From the NCBI GenBank assembly GCA_031423615.1, contig JANPFV010000104.1, positions 32,170 to 96,169 of the forward strand: a stretch of DNA of 64,000 nucleotides. The letters run 5' to 3'. Positions 12,020-33,292 of this stretch are shown here, piece by piece; the stretch's first letter is position 1, and each line of letters begins with the position of its first letter. The position numbers and the translations under genes were made by a program. Source of the DNA: Candidatus Omnitrophota bacterium. GTDB lineage: Bacteria > Omnitrophota > Gorgyraeia > Zapsychrales > JANLHA01. The notes below the pieces were generated by a model. It was not told where the DNA came from, did no database searches, and was given only the letters and a program-made list of their open reading frames with translations.

Positions 12020-12991
12020 TTAGGTTTTGACGAGGGCGGCCATTTTAATCCGCTGGGCGATCTGGGATTGGGCGGCGCTGATGCTGTCGCAGATTTTCAG
12101 AGCCAGTTTGAGCGCATCACGGCCCTCGACACCGGACACGACCGGTGTTCTATTCTCTCGGACACATTCAATGAAGGATTTGAGTTCTTCTTTCAAGGGT
12201 TCTTCTTTTTGGATAGGAAGAGCATGTTTGGAGATCAAGTCGCCATGTTTGCGGTAAATAAACGCTTCTTGTTTGACGTAGTCCAGCGAAATGTAGGAAT
12301 CGATGGTAAAAATACGGATTTTGCGCATCACCTCGTCGGACACGCGGCTGGCGGTCAAATTGCAGACGCAGCCATTGTCAAAAACCACGCGGACGCTGGC
12401 GATATCTTCCATCGGTGTGAGAACATTGATCCCTACGGCGTGAAAATCTTTGACAGGACTGTCGTCATTGATGCCAAGAATGATGTCTAAGTCATGAATC
12501 ATCAAGTCCATGACGACCCCGATGTCTAAAGAACGGTTGGGAAATTTATTGAGACGATGGCATTCAATAAAAAGAGGATGCTTGGTAAAATGTTTGATGG
12601 CCATAAATGCGGAATTGAAACGTTCCACATGCCCGACTTGCAATTTGAGATTGTTTTTTTCGGCGAGGGCAATGAGTTCATCGGCCTGGCCGACGTCCAT
12701 GGTTATGGGTTTTTCGATAAAAGTATGGATATTATTTTGGAGAAAGAATTTTCCGATTTCATAATGCAAAGTCGTGGGAACGCAAATATTGACCGCGTCG
12801 ATTTTCCCCACCAGATCGCGGTAATTTTCAAAAAAAGGGACGCGATAATGCCGGGCCAGGCGTTCGGTGCGATCTTCCTTAATATCGCAAACCCCAACCA
12901 CATTCACAATATTCTTAAGTTCACAATAGACTTTCAGATGACGGGACCCCAAATGACCGATACCGATAATGGCAACATTGACCTTTTTCAT
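12020..12991 (-). CDS. Gfo/Idh/MocA-family NAD(P)-dependent oxidoreductase (possible GnnA-type UDP-GlcNAc 3-dehydrogenase)
   Basis: Rossmann motif VAIIGIGHLGSRH at the N-terminus; sits 4 nt upstream of lpxB, a synteny typical of gnnA. ATG (MKKVNV) at 12989-12991 preferred over the TTG at 13048. Confidence 0.7.
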   Translation of the reverse strand: MKKVNVAIIGIGHLGSRHLKVYCELKNIVNVVGVCDIKEDRTERLARHYRVPFFENYRDLVGKIDAVNICVPTTLHYEIGKFFLQNNIHTFIEKPITMDVGQADELIALAEKNNLKLQVGHVERFNSAFMAIKHFTKHPLFIECHRLNKFPNRSLDIGVVMDLMIHDLDIILGINDDSPVKDFHAVGINVLTPMEDIASVRVVFDNGCVCNLTASRVSDEVMRKIRIFTIDSYISLDYVKQEAFIYRKHGDLISKHALPIQKEEPLKEELKSFIECVRENRTPVVSGVEGRDALKLALKICDSISAAQSQIAQRIKMAALVKT

Positions 12992-20035: not shown

Positions 20036-20111
20036 GACCCACTAGCTCATCAGGTAGAGCACAGCCCTTTTAAGGCTGGTGTGCCGCGTTCGAGTCGCGG
20101 GTGGGTCACCA
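20036..20111 (+). tRNA. tRNA-Lys (anticodon TTT), CCA encoded
   Basis: Acceptor GACCCAC/GTGGGTC, D-arm GCTCATCAGGTAGAGC, anticodon loop CTTTTAA, T-arm GTTCGAGTC, ends ACCA. Confidence 0.7.
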
Positions 20112-20219
20112 ATATTTTTATTGCGTGCCCGGGCCAGTGACGAAGCCCCTTTTGTGGGACGCATCAGATCAAGAGAAGTTTTAACGTTCGTAGAGTATTA
20201 ATTTTGTAGAGAGCTCCAC

Positions 20220-20300
20220 GGGCGGATGGCGGAATGGTAGACGCGCATGTCTTAGGAACATGTGAGGAGACTCGTGGAGGTTCAAGTCCTCTTCCGCCCA
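20220..20300 (+). tRNA. tRNA-Leu (anticodon TAG), long variable arm
   Basis: Acceptor GGGCGGA/TCCGCCC, D-arm GCGGAATGGTAGACGC, anticodon stem CATGT/ACATG with loop CTTAGGA, T-arm GGAGGTTCAAGTCCTCT. Confidence 0.65.
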
Positions 20301-20389
20301 TATGTGATTTAGGAAGGTCATCTAGGAATGTAATTTGGGAATGTGATTGAGGAGTGGAGGTTCTCCCAGAATTTAGTTCTTTCTATTTT

Positions 20390-20463
20390 GCGGCGGTAAT
20401 TCAGTTGGCTAGAATGCGACCTTGCCAAGGTCGATGTCATGGGTTCAAATCCCATCCGCCGCT
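20390..20463 (+). tRNA. tRNA-Gly (anticodon GCC)
   Basis: Acceptor GCGGCGG/CCGCCGC, anticodon stem CGACC/GGTCG with loop TTGCCAA, T-arm ATGGGTTCAAATCCCAT. Confidence 0.7.
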
Positions 20464-26271: not shown

Positions 26272-27594
26272 ATGGAAGACACTCAAACCGTACCTGCGGC
26301 AAACCGGACCGCGAATTATACAAAAAGGGAAGTTCGCATGAAGTATGACGTCAAAGACATCAATTTAGCTAAAAAGGGGAAACTACGCATCGAATGGGCG
26401 TTTAAGGATATGCCGGTTTTGTCTTTGATTGAGCAGCGTTTTGAAAAAGAAAAACCTTTAAAGGGATTGCGAGTTGCGGCCTGTTTGCATGTCACGACGG
26501 AAACAGGAAATCTGGCCCGCGTTTTAAAAGCTGGCGGGGCGGATGTTTTTATTTGCGCCTCGAATCCTTTATCCACCCAAGACGACGTTGCCGCTTCTCT
26601 CGTCAAGGATTATGGTATTCCCACCTTTGCCATTAAAGGAGAAGATACCAAAACATATTACAGTCATTTGAACGCGGTGTTAGACAGCCGCCCGAATTTG
26701 ACGATGGATGATGGGGCAGACTTGGTTTCAGAAATCCATCAAAAGCGTAAAGATCTTTTAAAGGATATTCTGGCCGGAACCGAGGAAACCACGACGGGCG
26801 TTATCCGTTTAAAGAGTCTGGAAAAGAGTAAACTGTTGATGTATCCCATCATTGCGGTCAATGATGCCTTAACCAAACATTTTTTTGATAACCGTTATGG
26901 AACCGGCCAATCCACATTAGATGGAATCATCCGTGCAACCAATCGTTTGGTTGCCGGCTCCAGTTTTGTCGTTTGCGGTTACGGCTGGTGCGGCCGCGGT
27001 GTGGCGATGCGTGCGTCGGGTTTAGGGGCACGCGTTATTGTGACCGAGGTTGATCCGCTAAAGGCGTTGGAAGCGGTCATGGATGGTTATGATGTCATGC
27101 CGATCAAGGAGGCTGCAAAAATTGGTGATTTTTTTGTCACGGTAACAGGCGACATTAACGTCATCCGTGCCGAGCACATGGCGACAATGAAAGAAGGGGC
27201 CATTATGTGCAACTCCGGGCACTTCAATGCTGAACTTGATATCGCCGGTTTGGAAAGAATTACGAAATCTCGTCGGATGATCCGAGATTATGTGGAAGAA
27301 TTCTCGTTAAAGAATGGTAAAAATATTTATCTTTTAGGAGAGGGACGCCTGATTAACCTCGCATCGGCGGAAGGACATCCGGCTTCGGTCATGGACATGA
27401 GCTTTGCCAATCAAGCTTTGGCTTCGGAATTTGTCGCCATGAATTATAAAAAGCTTGACAAGAAAGTTTACAGTGTTCCCCAAGATATTGATCAAAATAT
27501 TGCGAAACTTAAGTTGAAGGCCTTGGGTATTAAGATCGACGTTTTGACGCCGGAACAAAAGAAATATCTTTCCAGCTGGGAGATGGGCACCTAA
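26272..27594 (+). CDS. ahcY: Adenosylhomocysteinase
   Basis: Full-length SAHH similarity (NAD-binding GYGWCGRG, catalytic regions); the true start may be the internal MKYDVKD at 26338. Confidence 0.9.
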
Positions 27595-27615
27595 AGGAGA
27601 GTTTTAGATTCAAAA

Positions 27616-27663
27616 ACACCGTTCTTGCGAGTCTGTATCGCGGGGGCGGTGTTTTCTTTAATT
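27616..27663 (+). terminator. Putative rho-independent terminator after ahcY
   Basis: Two-tier hairpin ACACCG...GCGA-gtctgta-TCGC...CGGTGT followed by TTTCTTTAATTT. Confidence 0.4.
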
Positions 27664-27705
27664 TCGCTACTACTCATTTTTCCATTTGAAATGAGGGATA
27701 AAAAA

Positions 27706-28383
27706 ATGAAGATTTTATTAGTTGAGGATGACAAACAAACGGCGCGATTTATCCTTAAGGGCCTGAAACAGGAAGGGTATTTTGTTAACCATGCTGAAAA
27801 TGGCGAAGATGGACTTTACTCTGCCGAGATGGAAAATTATGATTTAGCGATTGTTGACATCATGATACCCAAGCTCGATGGGCTCAAAATGGTTGAACAA
27901 TTACGCAAAAAGAAAATTCTTACCCCCGTTATTATTCTGAGTGCTAAAAATAGCGTCGATGACCGTATCCGCGGATTACAGATGGGCGGCGATGATTATT
28001 TAGTCAAGCCCTTTGCCTTTGCGGAATTATTGGCACGAATTAAGGCTATTGTTCGGCGGAGCAACTCCAAAGCAGAGACGACCATTCTGCAGGTTGGCGA
28101 TTTAATTCTAGATATCGTCAAACGGAAAGTTTTTCGCGAGAGTAAGGAAATCACCCTTCCTGTTGGAGAGTTTCTTTTGCTTGAATATTTGATGCAAAAT
28201 GCGGGAAGGGTCGTTTCCAAGACCATGATTATTGAAAATGTTTGGAGTTATCACTTTGACCCGGAAACAAATGTCATTGAAGCGCGTATCAGCCGATTGA
28301 GAAGCAAAATCGACCAGTCTTTTAAGAAAAAACTTTTGCACACCGTGCGGGGATTTGGATATGTTGTGGAAGAAAGGGAATAA
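27706..28383 (+). CDS. OmpR-family response regulator
   Basis: Receiver domain (MKILLVEDD ... D at DIMIPKLDG) plus winged-helix C-terminus; GAGGGA RBS; the ORF-track 5' extension is rejected. Confidence 0.85.
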   Translation: MKILLVEDDKQTARFILKGLKQEGYFVNHAENGEDGLYSAEMENYDLAIVDIMIPKLDGLKMVEQLRKKKILTPVIILSAKNSVDDRIRGLQMGGDDYLVKPFAFAELLARIKAIVRRSNSKAETTILQVGDLILDIVKRKVFRESKEITLPVGEFLLLEYLMQNAGRVVSKTMIIENVWSYHFDPETNVIEARISRLRSKIDQSFKKKLLHTVRGFGYVVEERE

Positions 28384-29806
28384 TATTCTTCATAGCGTGG
28401 TGTTTCGGCTGACCCTATGGTACGCCGTCTTTTTTACAGTCGCTTTAGTTGCGCTTTTTATTATTAGCCAGCGCATTCTTTTGTCTGATCTTATCAAAAT
28501 CACCGATCACGATTTGCTCATCAATTCTCAGAATTATGCCGTGGATATCAAAAAAGACACTTTGGAAGAAATCAAGGCCGATATCGTCGACGATGCCAAT
28601 CAGGAAGGGTTAAGCCGGGTTTTTTATCGCCTGCTATCTTCTGATTTAAAGGTTATCGCTTCTTCGGATTTGAGCCAGTGGGAGAATTTGAATTTCCTGG
28701 AATTAAATGAATGGGCCAAATTGTCAATGTCCCAGAATGTTGTTTATCGCACCATTAAGGCGGCAGACCATGGCGGGAAGGTGCGGGTTATTAATCGGGC
28801 CATCGGTGATGGAAAGTATCTTTTGCAGATTGGGAAAATCGTCCGGGATAATAAGGCCTTAATGGACCGCTACCAAACCATTCTGGGGAGTATTGTTCTG
28901 GTATCTTTGTTGTGCGGGATCGGATTAGGTTTAGGGATGATTAAAAAAACAATGGAAGGTGTGGAGCGGGTTACGGAAACTGCGCAGCGCATTGGCAAGG
29001 AAGGGTTGGGCCATCGGGTCCAGTCGGGTAAGGAAGGAATAGAAATTGAGCGCTTGGCGGAAACTTTTAATAATATGCTGGACCGGATAGAACGATTGAT
29101 GCTGGAGTTAAGGGATTTTACCAACAATGTGGCCCATGACTTGCGCACGCCGATTACGCGTATTCGCGGCTTTGCGGAGATGTCTTTATCAAACAAAGAC
29201 AAGACACCGAATGACACCGAAGGCTATGGGGTCATTATGGAAGAATGCAACAATCTTATTCATATCATCAATACGGTTCTGGAAATTGCCGAAACAGATG
29301 CCGGCCTTAGAAATTATCAAGAAATCCAGATGGACCTTAATGACCTTGTCAAAAAAGGATATGAGTTGTTCCTGCCTGTGGCCGAGGATAAGGAGATTGA
29401 ACTTACGTTCCAAGGACCTTTGGATCCGGTTATTATTTTTGGAAATGTTCCTCGGCTTCAGCGGATTGTTTCCAACCTTTTGGATAATGCTTTAAAATAT
29501 ACCGAAAGAAAAGGCGCAGTCCACGTCGAGGTCAAAACAAGTACGGATCATGCCCAAGTCTCCATTCGTGATACGGGCCTGGGAATGGATGAAGTCCATT
29601 TGAAACGGATTTTTGAAAAGTTTTACCGCATTGAATCCAGCCGTTCAACGCCGGGCCATGGTTTGGGTTTAGCCTGGGTCAAATCTGCTCTTACAACAAT
29701 GGGCGCAAGTATTACCGTCCACAGCGTTAAAGGAAGTGGCAGTATCTTTACTCTCTTAATTCCCTACCCTCCTTCTTCCAGTTCTCCCGACATTACAAAA
29801 ATGTAA
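28361..29806 (+). CDS. Sensor histidine kinase (two TM helices, HAMP, HisKA, HATPase)
   Basis: H-box VAHDLRTPIT, N/G-boxes (LLDNALKYT, DTGLGM, GHGLGL); overlaps the response regulator end. Confidence 0.85.
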   Translation: MLWKKGNNILHSVVFRLTLWYAVFFTVALVALFIISQRILLSDLIKITDHDLLINSQNYAVDIKKDTLEEIKADIVDDANQEGLSRVFYRLLSSDLKVIASSDLSQWENLNFLELNEWAKLSMSQNVVYRTIKAADHGGKVRVINRAIGDGKYLLQIGKIVRDNKALMDRYQTILGSIVLVSLLCGIGLGLGMIKKTMEGVERVTETAQRIGKEGLGHRVQSGKEGIEIERLAETFNNMLDRIERLMLELRDFTNNVAHDLRTPITRIRGFAEMSLSNKDKTPNDTEGYGVIMEECNNLIHIINTVLEIAETDAGLRNYQEIQMDLNDLVKKGYELFLPVAEDKEIELTFQGPLDPVIIFGNVPRLQRIVSNLLDNALKYTERKGAVHVEVKTSTDHAQVSIRDTGLGMDEVHLKRIFEKFYRIESSRSTPGHGLGLAWVKSALTTMGASITVHSVKGSGSIFTLLIPYPPSSSSPDITKM

Positions 29807-29816
29807 TCTCCGCGTC

Positions 29817-29850
29817 AGGATAACATAATAGTCCTGTGTTATCTTTTGTT
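29817..29850 (+). terminator. Rho-independent terminator after the histidine kinase
   Basis: Stem GGATAACA / TGTTATC(T), 11-nt loop, then TTTTGTTT. Confidence 0.5.
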
Positions 29851-29880
29851 TATAGTCATAGTGACTCAAGGAGGAGAATT

Positions 29881-30714
29881 ATGGGGAGAATCGCAAAGGT
29901 TGTATTCGCATTACTCTTTTTTTCGCTCATAGTGGGAAAAGCAAGCTTTTCTGGAAATGGGCCAACTCCCAGTCTGGTCACATGTGAAATTCCCGTGGGA
30001 ACAAAGGTCATTCCCTTGCCGACAAAATATTTATACTTTGAATATAATTCCACCGAAGGAGATACTGTCATTCATGGATATTTTGACAGTGATTCTTTAG
30101 CGGAACTTTGCGTTTATGATCCCAGCGGTAAGCAGATTCTCACCGTGAAACCGCAAAACCAATTAAAGGATTTGACCATGTCTGAAATTTTCTTTGAGTC
30201 GGGTGAGCTGGGACATAAAGGAGTTCCCTTGCCAAAACATTTTGAGAATTTCCCCGAGGGATTTTATAAAGTGCGCGCTGTGGCTTTCGATGGCACGGGC
30301 TACGACGGTGCGGCGTGGCTGACCCATAATATTCCTAAACCTCCTAAAATGATTTTCCCGCCGGAAATGGTTAATGAGGCGGAGATTAATAGCCTTCATA
30401 TTTCTCCTGATAATGTCATTTTTCGCTGGGAACCGGTTAAGACAACCATTTTTGCAAAGCCCGTCAAAATTGATGGATATGCGGTGAGTATAAAAAAACT
30501 CTCTTATGCCCACCCCCATGGTTTTGCGCATCCCGTCTATAACGTGTGGGTCTTGCCAACCGTAACAAGTTTGACCATTCCTGATGAATTTTGGGAATCT
30601 GACACAGATTATGAATTTGAGGTGCTGGCTATCGAAGAGAGCGGAAACCAAACATCGGTTTCGGGATTTTTTAAAACCGGCAAGAAAAAGTTGTCGTCAG
30701 GAAACCCGATTTGA
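29881..30714 (+). CDS. Hypothetical secreted protein (278 aa)
   Basis: AAGGAGGAG RBS; signal peptide MGRIAKVVFALLFFSLIVGKASFS; no recognisable motifs. Confidence 0.5.
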   Translation: MGRIAKVVFALLFFSLIVGKASFSGNGPTPSLVTCEIPVGTKVIPLPTKYLYFEYNSTEGDTVIHGYFDSDSLAELCVYDPSGKQILTVKPQNQLKDLTMSEIFFESGELGHKGVPLPKHFENFPEGFYKVRAVAFDGTGYDGAAWLTHNIPKPPKMIFPPEMVNEAEINSLHISPDNVIFRWEPVKTTIFAKPVKIDGYAVSIKKLSYAHPHGFAHPVYNVWVLPTVTSLTIPDEFWESDTDYEFEVLAIEESGNQTSVSGFFKTGKKKLSSGNPI

Positions 30715-30767
30715 AGACAAAAGGAAGCAATTTTTAAAAAACAAAATCAGAATAGGGGGTAGGTGTA

Positions 30768-31076
30768 ATGATTGCACATCGAAAAATACCTTATGAAAGC
30801 ATTCAATTCCAGTATCTTATTGATATTCCCCATTGCCATTGCTTGTATGGGTCAGCCCGCGAAAGTGATACGGGTCTTTCTGTGCTTTTTCTCGTTTTTA
30901 GCCAAGAGAAAAAGATTTACCGACGCAATGGCTTGAAAGAAACGTGGGTTGAGCTTGACAACCCACAAGAGCATGCCCACATTCGCCGGCACCTTCTGCG
31001 GGCCATGGAAGATTCGGTTCCTCTTTATACCCTTAACGAAAATATTGTCTCCTTAGACCGGAACTTTTCTTTATGA
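30768..31076 (+). CDS. Hypothetical protein (102 aa)
   Basis: ORF with GGGGGTAGGTG RBS-like upstream; 4-nt ATGA overlap with the next gene. Confidence 0.4.
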   Translation: MIAHRKIPYESIQFQYLIDIPHCHCLYGSARESDTGLSVLFLVFSQEKKIYRRNGLKETWVELDNPQEHAHIRRHLLRAMEDSVPLYTLNENIVSLDRNFSL

Positions 31077-32182
31077 ATCGGGCAACAACTCTTTCGCCTG
31101 ATAAAGTGGACGCCCATCTTTCCGTTGTCAACCGCGGTGCGCAATCCGTAAAATGTCGTACTCCCTTGGTGCGTGAATTTTTTGGAAGGACAATGGAAGA
31201 TTTAGAGGCGTGTAGGACAGACTTAAGACTCTCTCATGTGGACAAGGAAGAAATGAATTTATTGTTGATGACGTTTACTCGCTTGCTTGGCCAAGAGGCG
31301 CTCTTTTTGGATCGGTTAATCGCGCGAAACGTCATTTCTCCTTATACGTCATTGGAATTCTGCAGTGATCCTCAATACGCGCGTAAAATACCCCGAGGAG
31401 TCACCGTTAAAACCGGAACAAAGGACAATCCCATTCGCTTTGCGGTATTTTCTTCATGGGTCGCTCCCGCCAGTTGGCTGCATTTTATTTTACAGTTGAT
31501 TGTCATGAATCGTAATAAGGTGGACACGTCGTTTTTGTTATCGACAATATCGGAGGAGACCAAGGTCGGATTAACGAATTCAAAGCAGTGGAGATATGAT
31601 ATGGCGGCCAATTATGTCATTCCTTTATTCGCCCCTTTTATCAGGTTTTCCGATTTCGGAAATTTGCATTCCGAAGAAATAGAGTCAGCTCCGTGGGAAT
31701 TTCAGGGAAGGGTCTTTGACGGTGAAAAGGCGCGGAAATTAAATAGCGGAGAAGATGCCAGTTTTAAGTTTTTTGAACGTAATCCGAAACGCTACATCAC
31801 GATGTTTTACATCGTCGGATCGGATCATCAGCGCTGTGAGAGTCGCTATGATAGTTATGGAAAGATCCGTGATAATATTCGCGCCAGACGATTCGGTTTT
31901 GATCCGCAATATCACAAAGCCGTGATTGTTTTTGTAGGCCGCCCGGGTTTTTACGAAAAGGTAGAAAAGATAGCCGTCCCCGAAGATTTAAGGAAGGTGT
32001 TGTCCATTCAATTCCTGCCCGCGCCCATCAATATTGCCGTGGCGTCACGATTAATCCGCGAAGCCTTCTTAGGTCAACATCCGCATCAAATGGTCATGGC
32101 TCCGCATGCGGCCTTGAATTATATTTTGGACCATCCGCATGTTTTAGCCGCCTTAAAGCAAGCCGGTCAAATAGGTTCTTGA
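31073..32182 (+). CDS. Hypothetical protein (369 aa)
   Basis: Long ORF translationally coupled to the 102-aa ORF; no recognisable motifs. Confidence 0.45.
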   Translation: MNRATTLSPDKVDAHLSVVNRGAQSVKCRTPLVREFFGRTMEDLEACRTDLRLSHVDKEEMNLLLMTFTRLLGQEALFLDRLIARNVISPYTSLEFCSDPQYARKIPRGVTVKTGTKDNPIRFAVFSSWVAPASWLHFILQLIVMNRNKVDTSFLLSTISEETKVGLTNSKQWRYDMAANYVIPLFAPFIRFSDFGNLHSEEIESAPWEFQGRVFDGEKARKLNSGEDASFKFFERNPKRYITMFYIVGSDHQRCESRYDSYGKIRDNIRARRFGFDPQYHKAVIVFVGRPGFYEKVEKIAVPEDLRKVLSIQFLPAPINIAVASRLIREAFLGQHPHQMVMAPHAALNYILDHPHVLAALKQAGQIGS

Positions 32183-32326
32183 GTTTTTCCTTCGAAATAT
32201 TTTAATTTTCGCTGCTTTTAAATATCTGTGAAGTTAATTCCCAACCCCATAAATTTAAGTTATAGTTAAAAAGATTTGAGATCAATTAAACAGATTTTAT
32301 TTGCATCGGATTCTTAAGAGGCCCGT

Positions 32327-33292
32327 ATGACAATTAAAAAAATTGGTGTTTTGACGTCGGGTGGAGACGGGCCGGGGATGAATGCCGCTCTCCGGAGTGT
32401 TGTCCGGGCGGGGCTGGCGGCCCAATTAGAGGTCGCAGGAATCATCCGCGGCTATCAGGGCTTGATCGATGATGAAGTTGTTGCGATGGATCACCGTTCG
32501 GTTTCCAATATCATCAATCGCGGCGGCACCATTCTTAAAACTGCGCGCTCCAAAAAATTTGCCACCCCGGAAGGCAAGGACATTGCCTTTGCGACGTTAA
32601 AAAAACACAATATCGACGCGCTGGTTGTCATCGGCGGAGACGGCACATACAAAGGCGCCGTAGATTTAATGACCCGGCACAATTTCCCTGTGGTGGGTGT
32701 TCCCGGATCGATTGACAATGACATTTGTGGCACCGATGAAACCATCGGTTGCGCGACGGCGATCAACACGGCCTTGGATTCCATTGATAAAATTCGCGAC
32801 ACCGCGCAAAGCATGGAACGTATTTTTATTATTGAAGTGATGGGCAACCAAAGCGGATATATCGCTTTGCGCGTGGCCATGGCCGCGGGCGCGGAAACCG
32901 TCATCATTCCGGAAAGGACATTCGATTATAAAACATTGTGTCAGGAAATTCAGGAAGGCAATAAACGCGGTAAAATCAACTGGATCATTGTGACGGCGGA
33001 AGGGGCGGCGAAAGCCCCGGACGTTGCGCAATCCTTGACCATGATGACCGGTTTGCAAACGCGTTTTGTCGTCTTGGGCCATGTTCAGCGGGGAGGATCA
33101 CCCGTTGCGGCCGACCGGATTTTGGCCACCCGTTTAGGCGCGGCGGCCGTCGATTTGCTTTTAAAAGGGCAATACGGAAAGGCCGTGGGTGTTATGAATG
33201 AGCATATCCATGTGGTTGATTTGACACAAGCGTTGAGCCGGCCGGACAGCCGCACCGACGAATATCTGCATTTGATGAAGACCCTCAGTTAG
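32327..33292 (+). CDS. pfkA: ATP-dependent 6-phosphofructokinase
   Basis: KIGVLTSGGDGPGMNAALRSVVR and GGDGT motifs. Confidence 0.9.
   Translation: MTIKKIGVLTSGGDGPGMNAALRSVVRAGLAAQLEVAGIIRGYQGLIDDEVVAMDHRSVSNIINRGGTILKTARSKKFATPEGKDIAFATLKKHNIDALVVIGGDGTYKGAVDLMTRHNFPVVGVPGSIDNDICGTDETIGCATAINTALDSIDKIRDTAQSMERIFIIEVMGNQSGYIALRVAMAAGAETVIIPERTFDYKTLCQEIQEGNKRGKINWIIVTAEGAAKAPDVAQSLTMMTGLQTRFVVLGHVQRGGSPVAADRILATRLGAAAVDLLLKGQYGKAVGVMNEHIHVVDLTQALSRPDSRTDEYLHLMKTLS

Follow-up and report, generated by a model that had tools for sequence, protein, structure and literature searches.

The window analysed here, a stretch of 64,000 nucleotides (nt) from a Candidatus Omnitrophota bacterium in whose coordinates the positions below are given, carries between its ahcY and pfkA genes an insert of five genes that three collinear relatives do not have at this position. 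The first two encode an OmpR-family response regulator (RR) and a membrane sensor histidine kinase (HK), and they are followed by three open reading frames (ORFs), here called A, B and C. We lean towards the view that this insert joins two things of different origin: a signalling cassette, RR-HK-A, and an unrelated pair, B-C, so that the A-B-C block forming its distal part would be a composite. A looks like an exported protein of a family that recurs beside two-component systems in several phyla, and C is, by profile searches and predicted fold, a very diverged relative of NadD. What this adds is a new family of partners for signalling modules of a known type, together with an outlying member of a NadD-like family; the system itself is not of a new kind. 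No new principle is involved, and the benefit is one of better annotation.

A variable slot between ahcY and pfkA

The MetK protein of the window falls into a 90% identity cluster with proteins named Candidatus Omnitrophota/Omnitrophica. Three Omnitrophota contigs are collinear with window positions 15-40 kb at 73-78% nucleotide identity by blastn: one from assembly GCA_020632535.1 (L092), one labelled Omnitrophota (L094) and one from a JGI metagenome (L096). In all three, homology is lost at window positions 27593-27595 and regained at 32326, and the proteins flanking the insert are 77-94% identical to their counterparts. As ahcY stops at 27594 and pfkA starts at 32327, collinearity breaks exactly at the end of the one gene and the beginning of the other, which makes the whole of RR-HK-A-B-C one lineage-specific variable unit (Table 1). 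An initial annotation of this DNA had seen the A-B-C block as lying downstream of a resident sensor system. The two-component system is instead itself part of the insert, and arrived or was retained together with the block. The same gene order is also found on a separately assembled 7.5-kb Logan contig, which speaks against a binning chimera.

What, then, stands in this slot elsewhere? In L094 there are 254 bp without a gene (12543-12795), and in L092 (12623-14323) and L096 (12681-14411) there is one DUF4140/DUF4139 gene. The ahcY-pfkA junction is therefore a small hot spot, found in three states in four related Omnitrophota genomes, while the ~25 kb around it show strict collinearity. A remnant of the DUF4139 gene was looked for in the window and none was found. 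The first ~45 nt 3' of ahcY are weakly similar to the L094 spacer and may, on that similarity, be ancestral. At the other edge, the AT-rich spacer before pfkA has the 144 nt first reported for it, and it does not align to the spacers of the collinear relatives.

The base composition of the insert is mildly deviant, as had been suggested by eye. Its GC content is 0.433, against 0.471 +/- 0.020 for the 52 other genes of the window, with z scores of -1.9 for A, -1.9 for B and -0.8 for C. For GC content at third codon positions (GC3) the z scores are -2.7, -2.7 and -1.5, and they range from -0.9 to -2.7 over the five insert genes, all five of which lie under the window mean in both measures. There is no integrase or transposase gene among the insert ORFs, looking for att sites or for repeats at the flanks turned up only short repeats at chance level, and the nearest tRNAs are 7 kb away. 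The insert is island-like only in its presence/absence polymorphism and its lower GC, and does not qualify as a mobile island. It is nonetheless accessory rather than housekeeping, as had been proposed, the three collinear relatives lacking the block at this position: neither an assignment of all three proteins to housekeeping families nor a universal conservation of the block with ordinary composition was found.

Table 1. Features of the insert and its edges, in window coordinates.
Feature	Position	Strand	Description and basis
Lineage-specific insert RR-HK-A-B-C	27596..32325	.	~4.7 kb, between ahcY and pfkA; blastn against three collinear contigs
Hairpin with T-run	27613..27655	+	18 pairs, directly 3' of the ahcY stop, left insert edge; terminator scan, inverted repeat search
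OmpR-family response regulator (RR)	27706..28383	+	225 amino acids (aa); Pfam Response_reg and Trans_reg_C
Membrane sensor histidine kinase (HK)	28355..29806	+	483 aa; HAMP-HisKA-HATPase_c by Pfam
AT-rich stem-loop with U-run	29812..29853	+	in the 74-nt HK-A spacer; fold energy
Shine-Dalgarno sequence AAGGAGGAG of gene A	29868..29876	+	read from sequence
Gene A	29881..30714	+	277 aa; predicted signal peptide and two FN3-like beta-sandwich domains
ORF B	30768..31076	+	102 aa; no signal peptide; orphan
Gene C	31073..32182	+	369 aa; predicted three-helix N-terminal extension (~1-90) and NMNAT/NadD-fold core (~115-369)
Spacer before pfkA	32183..32326	+	144 nt, 29% GC; presumed pfkA promoter region

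Gene A and its family

The ORF map and the sequence bear out three same-strand ORFs 3' of the OmpR/HK pair. The first of them, A, counts 277 residues from its ATG at 29881, not 278 as annotated initially, and it is preceded by the strong ribosome-binding site that had been pointed out, AAGGAGGAG, whose GGAGG core lies 6 nt 5' of the start codon. A signal peptide had also been proposed, and indeed the N-terminus (MGRIAKVVFALLFFSLIVGKA) resembles one of the Sec type; in the AlphaFold2 (AF2) model, residues 2-24 form a helix, with a disordered linker behind it. No significant family match for A, B or C came from Pfam, NCBIfam, PADLOC or PHROGs, the sub-threshold hits (Mucin_bdg, RavA_C, ParBc_2) being discarded as noise. 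For A, the Pfam scan gave no match to FN3 (PF00041), and a profile of its family found nothing meaningful among PDB sequences. Foldseek relates the model to tandem beta-sandwich structures with E values of about 1e-6, TM-scores of 0.2-0.3 and 11-14% identity. On these models, A looks like a protein exported via Sec and made of tandem FN3-like domains, and the earlier statement that it has no recognisable domain holds for the profile libraries.

The block had further been described as devoid of recognisable homology, which is so for B and not for A or C, the latter being linked to NadD (see below). A has 48 homologues in the protein collection and 186 tblastn-confirmed matches among 185,579 GTDB species-representative genomes. 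Their alignment is strongly conserved over ~265 aa, with invariant acidic positions (E55, D62, D70, E107, E110, E248 and E253) and two invariant signatures, FFE(S/G)xEP and AIEESGNQT. The relatives bear N-terminal signal peptides or lipoboxes, and the closest clade has a C-terminal transmembrane anchor. In four loci (L012, L018, L084 and L087) paralogous copies stand in tandem or near one another. The family is uncharacterised and lies outside Pfam; with its description, a gene that would have been called “hypothetical” receives an annotation open to testing.

The RR-HK-A cassette

Gene contexts were counted in 80 genome loci with an A homologue, 46 of which have full 2.5-kb flanks. A two-component system lies within 2.5 kb of A in 22 of the 80 and in 14 of the 46; for the latter, enrichment has a p value of ~3e-8 against an assumed background of 5%, itself a rough assumption. 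RR-HK-A is one of three arrangements, the others being A-RR-HK and a HK-RR pair divergent from A, and at least five phyla are represented: Chloroflexota, Acidobacteriota, Actinomycetota, Deinococcota and Planctomycetota. The regulators within this distance are 40-48% identical to that of the window, except in L081 (35%), while full-length matches more than 5 kb from A reach only ~30-32%; two further regulators, beside a kinase 3.6-4.6 kb from A (L014 and L065), are 46-47% identical. When all neighbours were clustered against one another, HK and RR were the sole strongly recurrent families around A. Among the closest relatives of A, the L098 locus has a kinase, then an A gene (70% identity); the kinase is a fragment to which the HK of the window is 74% identical over 273 aa. 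In L099, a close relative, RR-HK-A is present too, and the next ORF, on the opposite strand, runs into the end of A. The copy in the window belongs to the same group by its motifs, its signal helix, its adjacent RR and HK, and the similarity of its RR. From this recurrence across phyla, we read RR-HK-A as a conserved cassette, probably one for envelope signalling. A tie to the sensor system had been suggested for the block as a whole, and it holds for A.

A second neighbour, weaker but frequent, is a small exported PepSY protein. Of the 80 loci, 17 encode one no more than 1 kb from A, and it is present in 11 of the 25 A loci whose examined flanks include a two-component system. In four loci from alphaproteobacterial metagenome-assembled genomes, a protein of ~188 aa stands in for the two-component system beside A, within ~250 bp (L064, L070 and L085) or ~1.4 kb (L012); it has a helix-turn-helix of the GerE/sigma-70 region 4 type, under the Pfam cut-offs, and apparent N-terminal transmembrane segments.

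Both signalling proteins of the window find their best NCBIfam models among heavy-metal systems. The RR, whose 225-aa start is the same as in an independent gene call, scores 274.1 bits with TIGR01387 (heavy-metal RR; cut-off 279.2), and the HK 204 bits with TIGR01386 (heavy-metal sensor kinase; cut-off 292.6). PDB sequence searches with HK and RR returned generic transmitter and receiver matches only.

The cassette among known systems

These best models are what the cassette has in common with CopRS, CusRS and CzcRS, along with an adjoining exported protein, here A with its many invariant acidic residues. Unlike these systems, both scores fall under the curated cut-offs, and genes for an efflux pump, a multicopper oxidase or a protein like CopC or CusF are absent; unlike copper- and silver-binding proteins, A has no His- or Met-rich motif.

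In gene arrangement, the cassette resembles DbfQRS of Vibrio cholerae and BqsPQRS of Pseudomonas aeruginosa. Here too an RR and a membrane HK are accompanied by a Sec-exported protein of small to medium size, in variable order (upstream, downstream or divergent) and in many phyla, and the PepSY protein of the related A loci adds to the likeness. The V. cholerae kinase DbfS is shifted towards phosphatase activity when DbfQ, a PepSY protein, binds its sensor domain, and PepSY-HK-RR modules are reported to be widespread (PMC12714742). Unlike in DbfQRS and BqsPQRS, there is no PepSY gene in the cassette of the window: A and B have no PepSY match, and the insert has no other ORF. A itself differs from DbfQ in being a tandem FN3-like protein of 277 aa rather than a PepSY domain. 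A literature search found no paper tying an FN3-type protein to PepSY-HK-RR modules. As an exported protein of two consecutive beta-sandwich domains, A also recalls V. cholerae RbmA and the calcium-binding BIg repeats of SiiE. That resemblance is, however, generic to the fold, AIEESGNQT and FFE(S/G)xEP being specific to the A family.

How might such a cassette work? A membrane kinase of the CopS/CusS type, with a periplasmic sensor domain, would phosphorylate the OmpR-type RR. A, exported via Sec, would work outside the cytoplasm, either as the dedicated periplasmic output of the cassette, its gene then being regulated by the RR, or as a co-sensor or modulator of the kinase. We favour A as a periplasmic partner that would bind a cation or another ligand, in view of its invariant acidic cluster and of the frequent PepSY neighbour of its relatives; it would then be a counterpart of what the DbfQ-DbfS and BqsPQ-BqsS modules contain. 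This makes A attractive for structure-guided tests of an interaction with the kinase sensor domain.

ORF B and gene C beside the cassette

The 102-aa B and the 369-aa C are as first described, the TGA of B and the ATG of C overlapping at 31073 in an exact ATGA. Yet the two genes are absent from 86 out of 86 other A loci, L099 included, so that the three-gene unit of the initial annotation is not found elsewhere; and since B-C accompanies A nowhere else, it would be of separate origin from RR-HK-A. Co-transcription of A, B and C, if real, would be a local and recent arrangement.

Between HK and A, the initial annotation had seen a clean rho-independent terminator. The element is a weak, AT-rich hairpin of ~11 pairs (29817-29845) with UUUUGUUUAU behind it; its fold energy is -10.6 kcal/mol (z = -2.4 relative to shuffled sequences), and a consensus terminator scan did not call it. 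In L098, which has the closest relative of A, one compensatory change preserves the stem, but the T-run is gone. Sequence comparison thus points to a conserved stem-loop, an RNA or DNA element that would be at best a leaky terminator. Its half-sites, GATAACA and TGTTATC, were considered as an RR box and rejected, since neither RR nor B has further copies of them upstream. Between A and B, the terminator scan gave nothing convincing.

This bears on an opposite reading, in which A, B and C are one accessory operon under the adjacent two-component system and act in one function. All lie on one strand, separated by 74, 53 and -4 nt (HK-A, A-B and B-C), were inserted together and have similarly low GC3, read-through from RR-HK is likely across so weak a hairpin, and there is no convincing terminator in the A-B gap. 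The comparative record speaks otherwise: B and C are missing from every one of the 86 other A loci, the L099 cassette ends in its opposite-strand ORF, and the relatives of C are found in unrelated contexts, without A, a two-component system or B. Furthermore, one product would be periplasmic and two cytoplasmic, with no obvious shared chemistry. We consider a single operon with a single function unlikely, and retain a conserved cassette joined to a pair of other origin.

Several points weigh against this preferred reading. B-C has strand, close spacing and composition in common with A, and the short gaps without a strong terminator leave room for co-transcription, and hence co-regulation, of the three genes. 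About 70% of the full-flank A loci have no nearby two-component system, so A can work without a dedicated kinase. The cut-offs of the heavy-metal subfamilies are missed narrowly by the RR and widely by the HK, and the sensor domain of the HK has no solved relative by PDB sequence search. No shared RR-box-like repeat was found, and the absence of a PepSY gene makes the analogy with DbfQ indirect. On the side of B-C, the AF2 alignment of C is dominated by NadD-like relatives, which leaves the fold match not fully independent of the sequence link, and the orphan status of B comes from searches of limited range, given below.

Gene C, an outlier of a long NadD-like family

C had been described as lacking motifs. 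A word-indexed search in 5.8 billion proteins did return C only, and C itself matches neither the NadD models (PF01467, TIGR00482) nor a cytidylyltransferase or any other Pfam or NCBIfam model. More sensitive methods tell another story. An exhaustive phmmer search, run against 1.84 billion representatives, brought up 39 proteins at E <=1e-3, and those that form what we call the long NadD-like family (P0061 and P0106-P0125) have E values of 1e-7 to 6e-65; among about 15 billion proteins, the nearest relative is just 33-36% identical. Against a family profile built without it, C scores 140 bits over its full length (E = 1.7e-42). The family is in turn connected to NadD: its alignment shows the motifs FPxAANPxHWGH, GxDH and SSTxIR, its profile matches NadD crystal structures (best E = 1.8e-8) where a PDB sequence search with C alone gave no match, 26 of 30 aligned members match TIGR00482 at E <=0.01 (best 5e-12), some are named NaMN (nicotinate mononucleotide) adenylyltransferase by JGI, and more distant matches bear the Pfam cytidylyltransferase-like domain. 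The predicted structure of C also has the nucleotidyltransferase fold of the NMNAT type. Family profile and model together make C a very diverged NadD/NMNAT-fold protein.

The divergence reaches the ATP motif. Where the superfamily has T/HxGH, C has S134-W-L-H137, its Gly being replaced by Leu and the second His kept; position 134 is His in 27 of 29 relatives. Other family-conserved residues are changed as well (N131A, G124A, P127S, S324A and G159I, besides H134S). The G-x-D-H motif is retained, and the C-terminal ISSTxxR reads V-A-S-R-L-I-R329, with S325 and R329 kept and S324 turned into Ala. Unlike canonical NadD, of about 190-220 aa, C has the N-terminal helical extension of ~100 aa that is typical of its family and ends in a conserved Pro, which C keeps as P90. 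It also differs in its surroundings. Canonical nadD typically stands in a nadD-yqeK-rsfS context, and C does not.

Could C then simply be a functional adenylyltransferase for NaMN or nicotinamide mononucleotide (NMN), an isozyme of NAD biosynthesis that would make the block metabolic and of a housekeeping type? The TIGR00482 matches and the JGI names in its family point that way, and so does the motif itself. The superfamily motif is T/HxGH, and the H19A change cuts E. coli NadD to 0.62% of its activity (PMC1249556); the second His, whose loss is so crippling, is kept in C, which thus cannot be called inactive, and Ser134 may mimic the Thr of the motif, judging from the alignment. The lack of any model match, the substitutions at family-conserved residues, the low identity to the nearest relative and an extension foreign to canonical NadD argue the other way, and three close relatives do without the gene at this slot, so that it is not needed there. 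A housekeeping isozyme is, in our estimate, quite improbable. We rather picture C as a protein that most likely would still bind ATP or else a pyridine or other mononucleotide, and whose adenylyltransferase chemistry may be altered. Together with B, which would be its orphan partner subunit, C would form a translationally coupled cytoplasmic pair. The long NadD-like family, with C as an extreme outlier carrying a variant ATP motif, should help those who annotate the NAD metabolism of Omnitrophota and of further candidate phyla.

The genomic surroundings of the C relatives are unrelated to those in the window; giant ORFs are often next to the gene, and A, a linked two-component system and B are all absent. 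A scan of JGI metagenomes for the C subfamily gave four distant loci, none with B, and plasmids, phages and IMG/VR held no match for C. In L088, L089 and L091, long NadD-like genes with intact motifs lie beside opposite-strand ORFs of 811 to >3000 aa that have no strong Pfam domains. The closest relatives, P0050 (909 aa) and P0052 (876 aa), contain two or three tandem long NadD-like units, and the C-terminal region of P0052 resembles by eye an HD-type (YqeK-like) segment, with no Pfam match. Other relatives have neither motif histidine or bear fused domains, and in some of the His-less ones the fusion partner is a long C-terminal region that is uncharacterised. One without either histidine (FTPANPPNMIEF; L102, 530-5798) is divergent from a 1336-aa P-loop protein (GESGGGKSAL), whose domain order resembles by eye that of a STAND/NLR-type NTPase, a possible conflict-system context.

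It may be asked in this connection whether B-C is a conflict module (toxin-antitoxin or anti-phage, sensing or altering nucleotides of the NAD pathway) on a small genomic islet. A lineage-specific insertion of deviant composition in a variable slot, a small ORF whose translation is coupled to that of a larger, enzyme-like fold, and the His-less relatives with long fusions or beside the STAND-like protein would suit such a module. Against it, PADLOC (E <=1) and PHROGs gave no match, plasmids, phages and IMG/VR nothing, and integrase, transposase and flanking repeats are all absent; the STAND reading of the L102 neighbour was made from the sequence by eye, with no profile match. We regard a conflict module as very unlikely, and keep to the picture of a coupled pair of separate origin.

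ORF B

B has no relative in its 90% cluster (which holds only itself), among the fetched proteins and loci, or in plasmids, phages and IMG/VR, a negative obtained without any search of the large protein databases. The pair had been put forward for a search of co-occurrence elsewhere, and B proved absent beside 7 distant relatives of C. Two other identities were considered and ruled out: a substitute for the PepSY protein, B having neither a signal peptide nor a PepSY match, and a fragment of the multi-repeat proteins P0050 and P0052 (phmmer E > 1).

Is B a gene at all? The A-C gap could instead be a leader or regulatory region of 358 nt, with C as a solitary gene. Besides the lack of relatives, the coding score of B is only 0.062, where pieces of other genes cut to the same length reach 0.373 +/- 0.109 (2.9 standard deviations higher), and antisense shadow ORFs of 115-162 aa here show that such lengths arise by chance. 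On the other hand, the B frame is the best of six, and A (0.167) and C (0.15) also score low, which makes the low score a property of the whole insert. An Rfam scan of 27400-32500 gave no match, such as a riboswitch of the NAD classes, in the A-C gap. Finally, a ribosome-binding-like site, GGGGGTAGGTG, lies 3 nt 5' of B, and C has no good Shine-Dalgarno sequence of its own; together with the exact ATGA overlap, this favours B as a real coupled gene. We think it fairly unlikely that B is a non-coding leader, and the sequence makes B plausible as a real gene.

Residues ~20-26 and 68-75 of B (window 30780-30850) contain the patterns H-C-H-C (IPHCHCLYG) and H-x-H-x-x-x-H (EHAHIRRH); metal binding by these His/Cys stretches is speculative.

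A wider interpretation and minor observations

If the cassette and the pair are taken together, a bolder proposal can be made: the A family would be a new extracytoplasmic partner class for the CopRS/DbfRS-like lineage, a co-sensor or feedback modulator acting with PepSY or replacing it, and the cassette of the window would have captured B and a re-purposed NMNAT-fold protein, C. We hold this to be a long shot. Were it true, signalling at the envelope would be linked to the chemistry of nucleotides or of NAD.

The 18-pair hairpin behind the ahcY stop, where the insert begins on the left, is likely the terminator of ahcY. Elsewhere in the window, positions 20036-20463 hold a tRNA cluster (Lys-TTT, Leu-TAG and Gly-GCC), in which the stretch of the tRNA-Leu is ~99% identical to two of the relatives, against ~76% for the surrounding genes.

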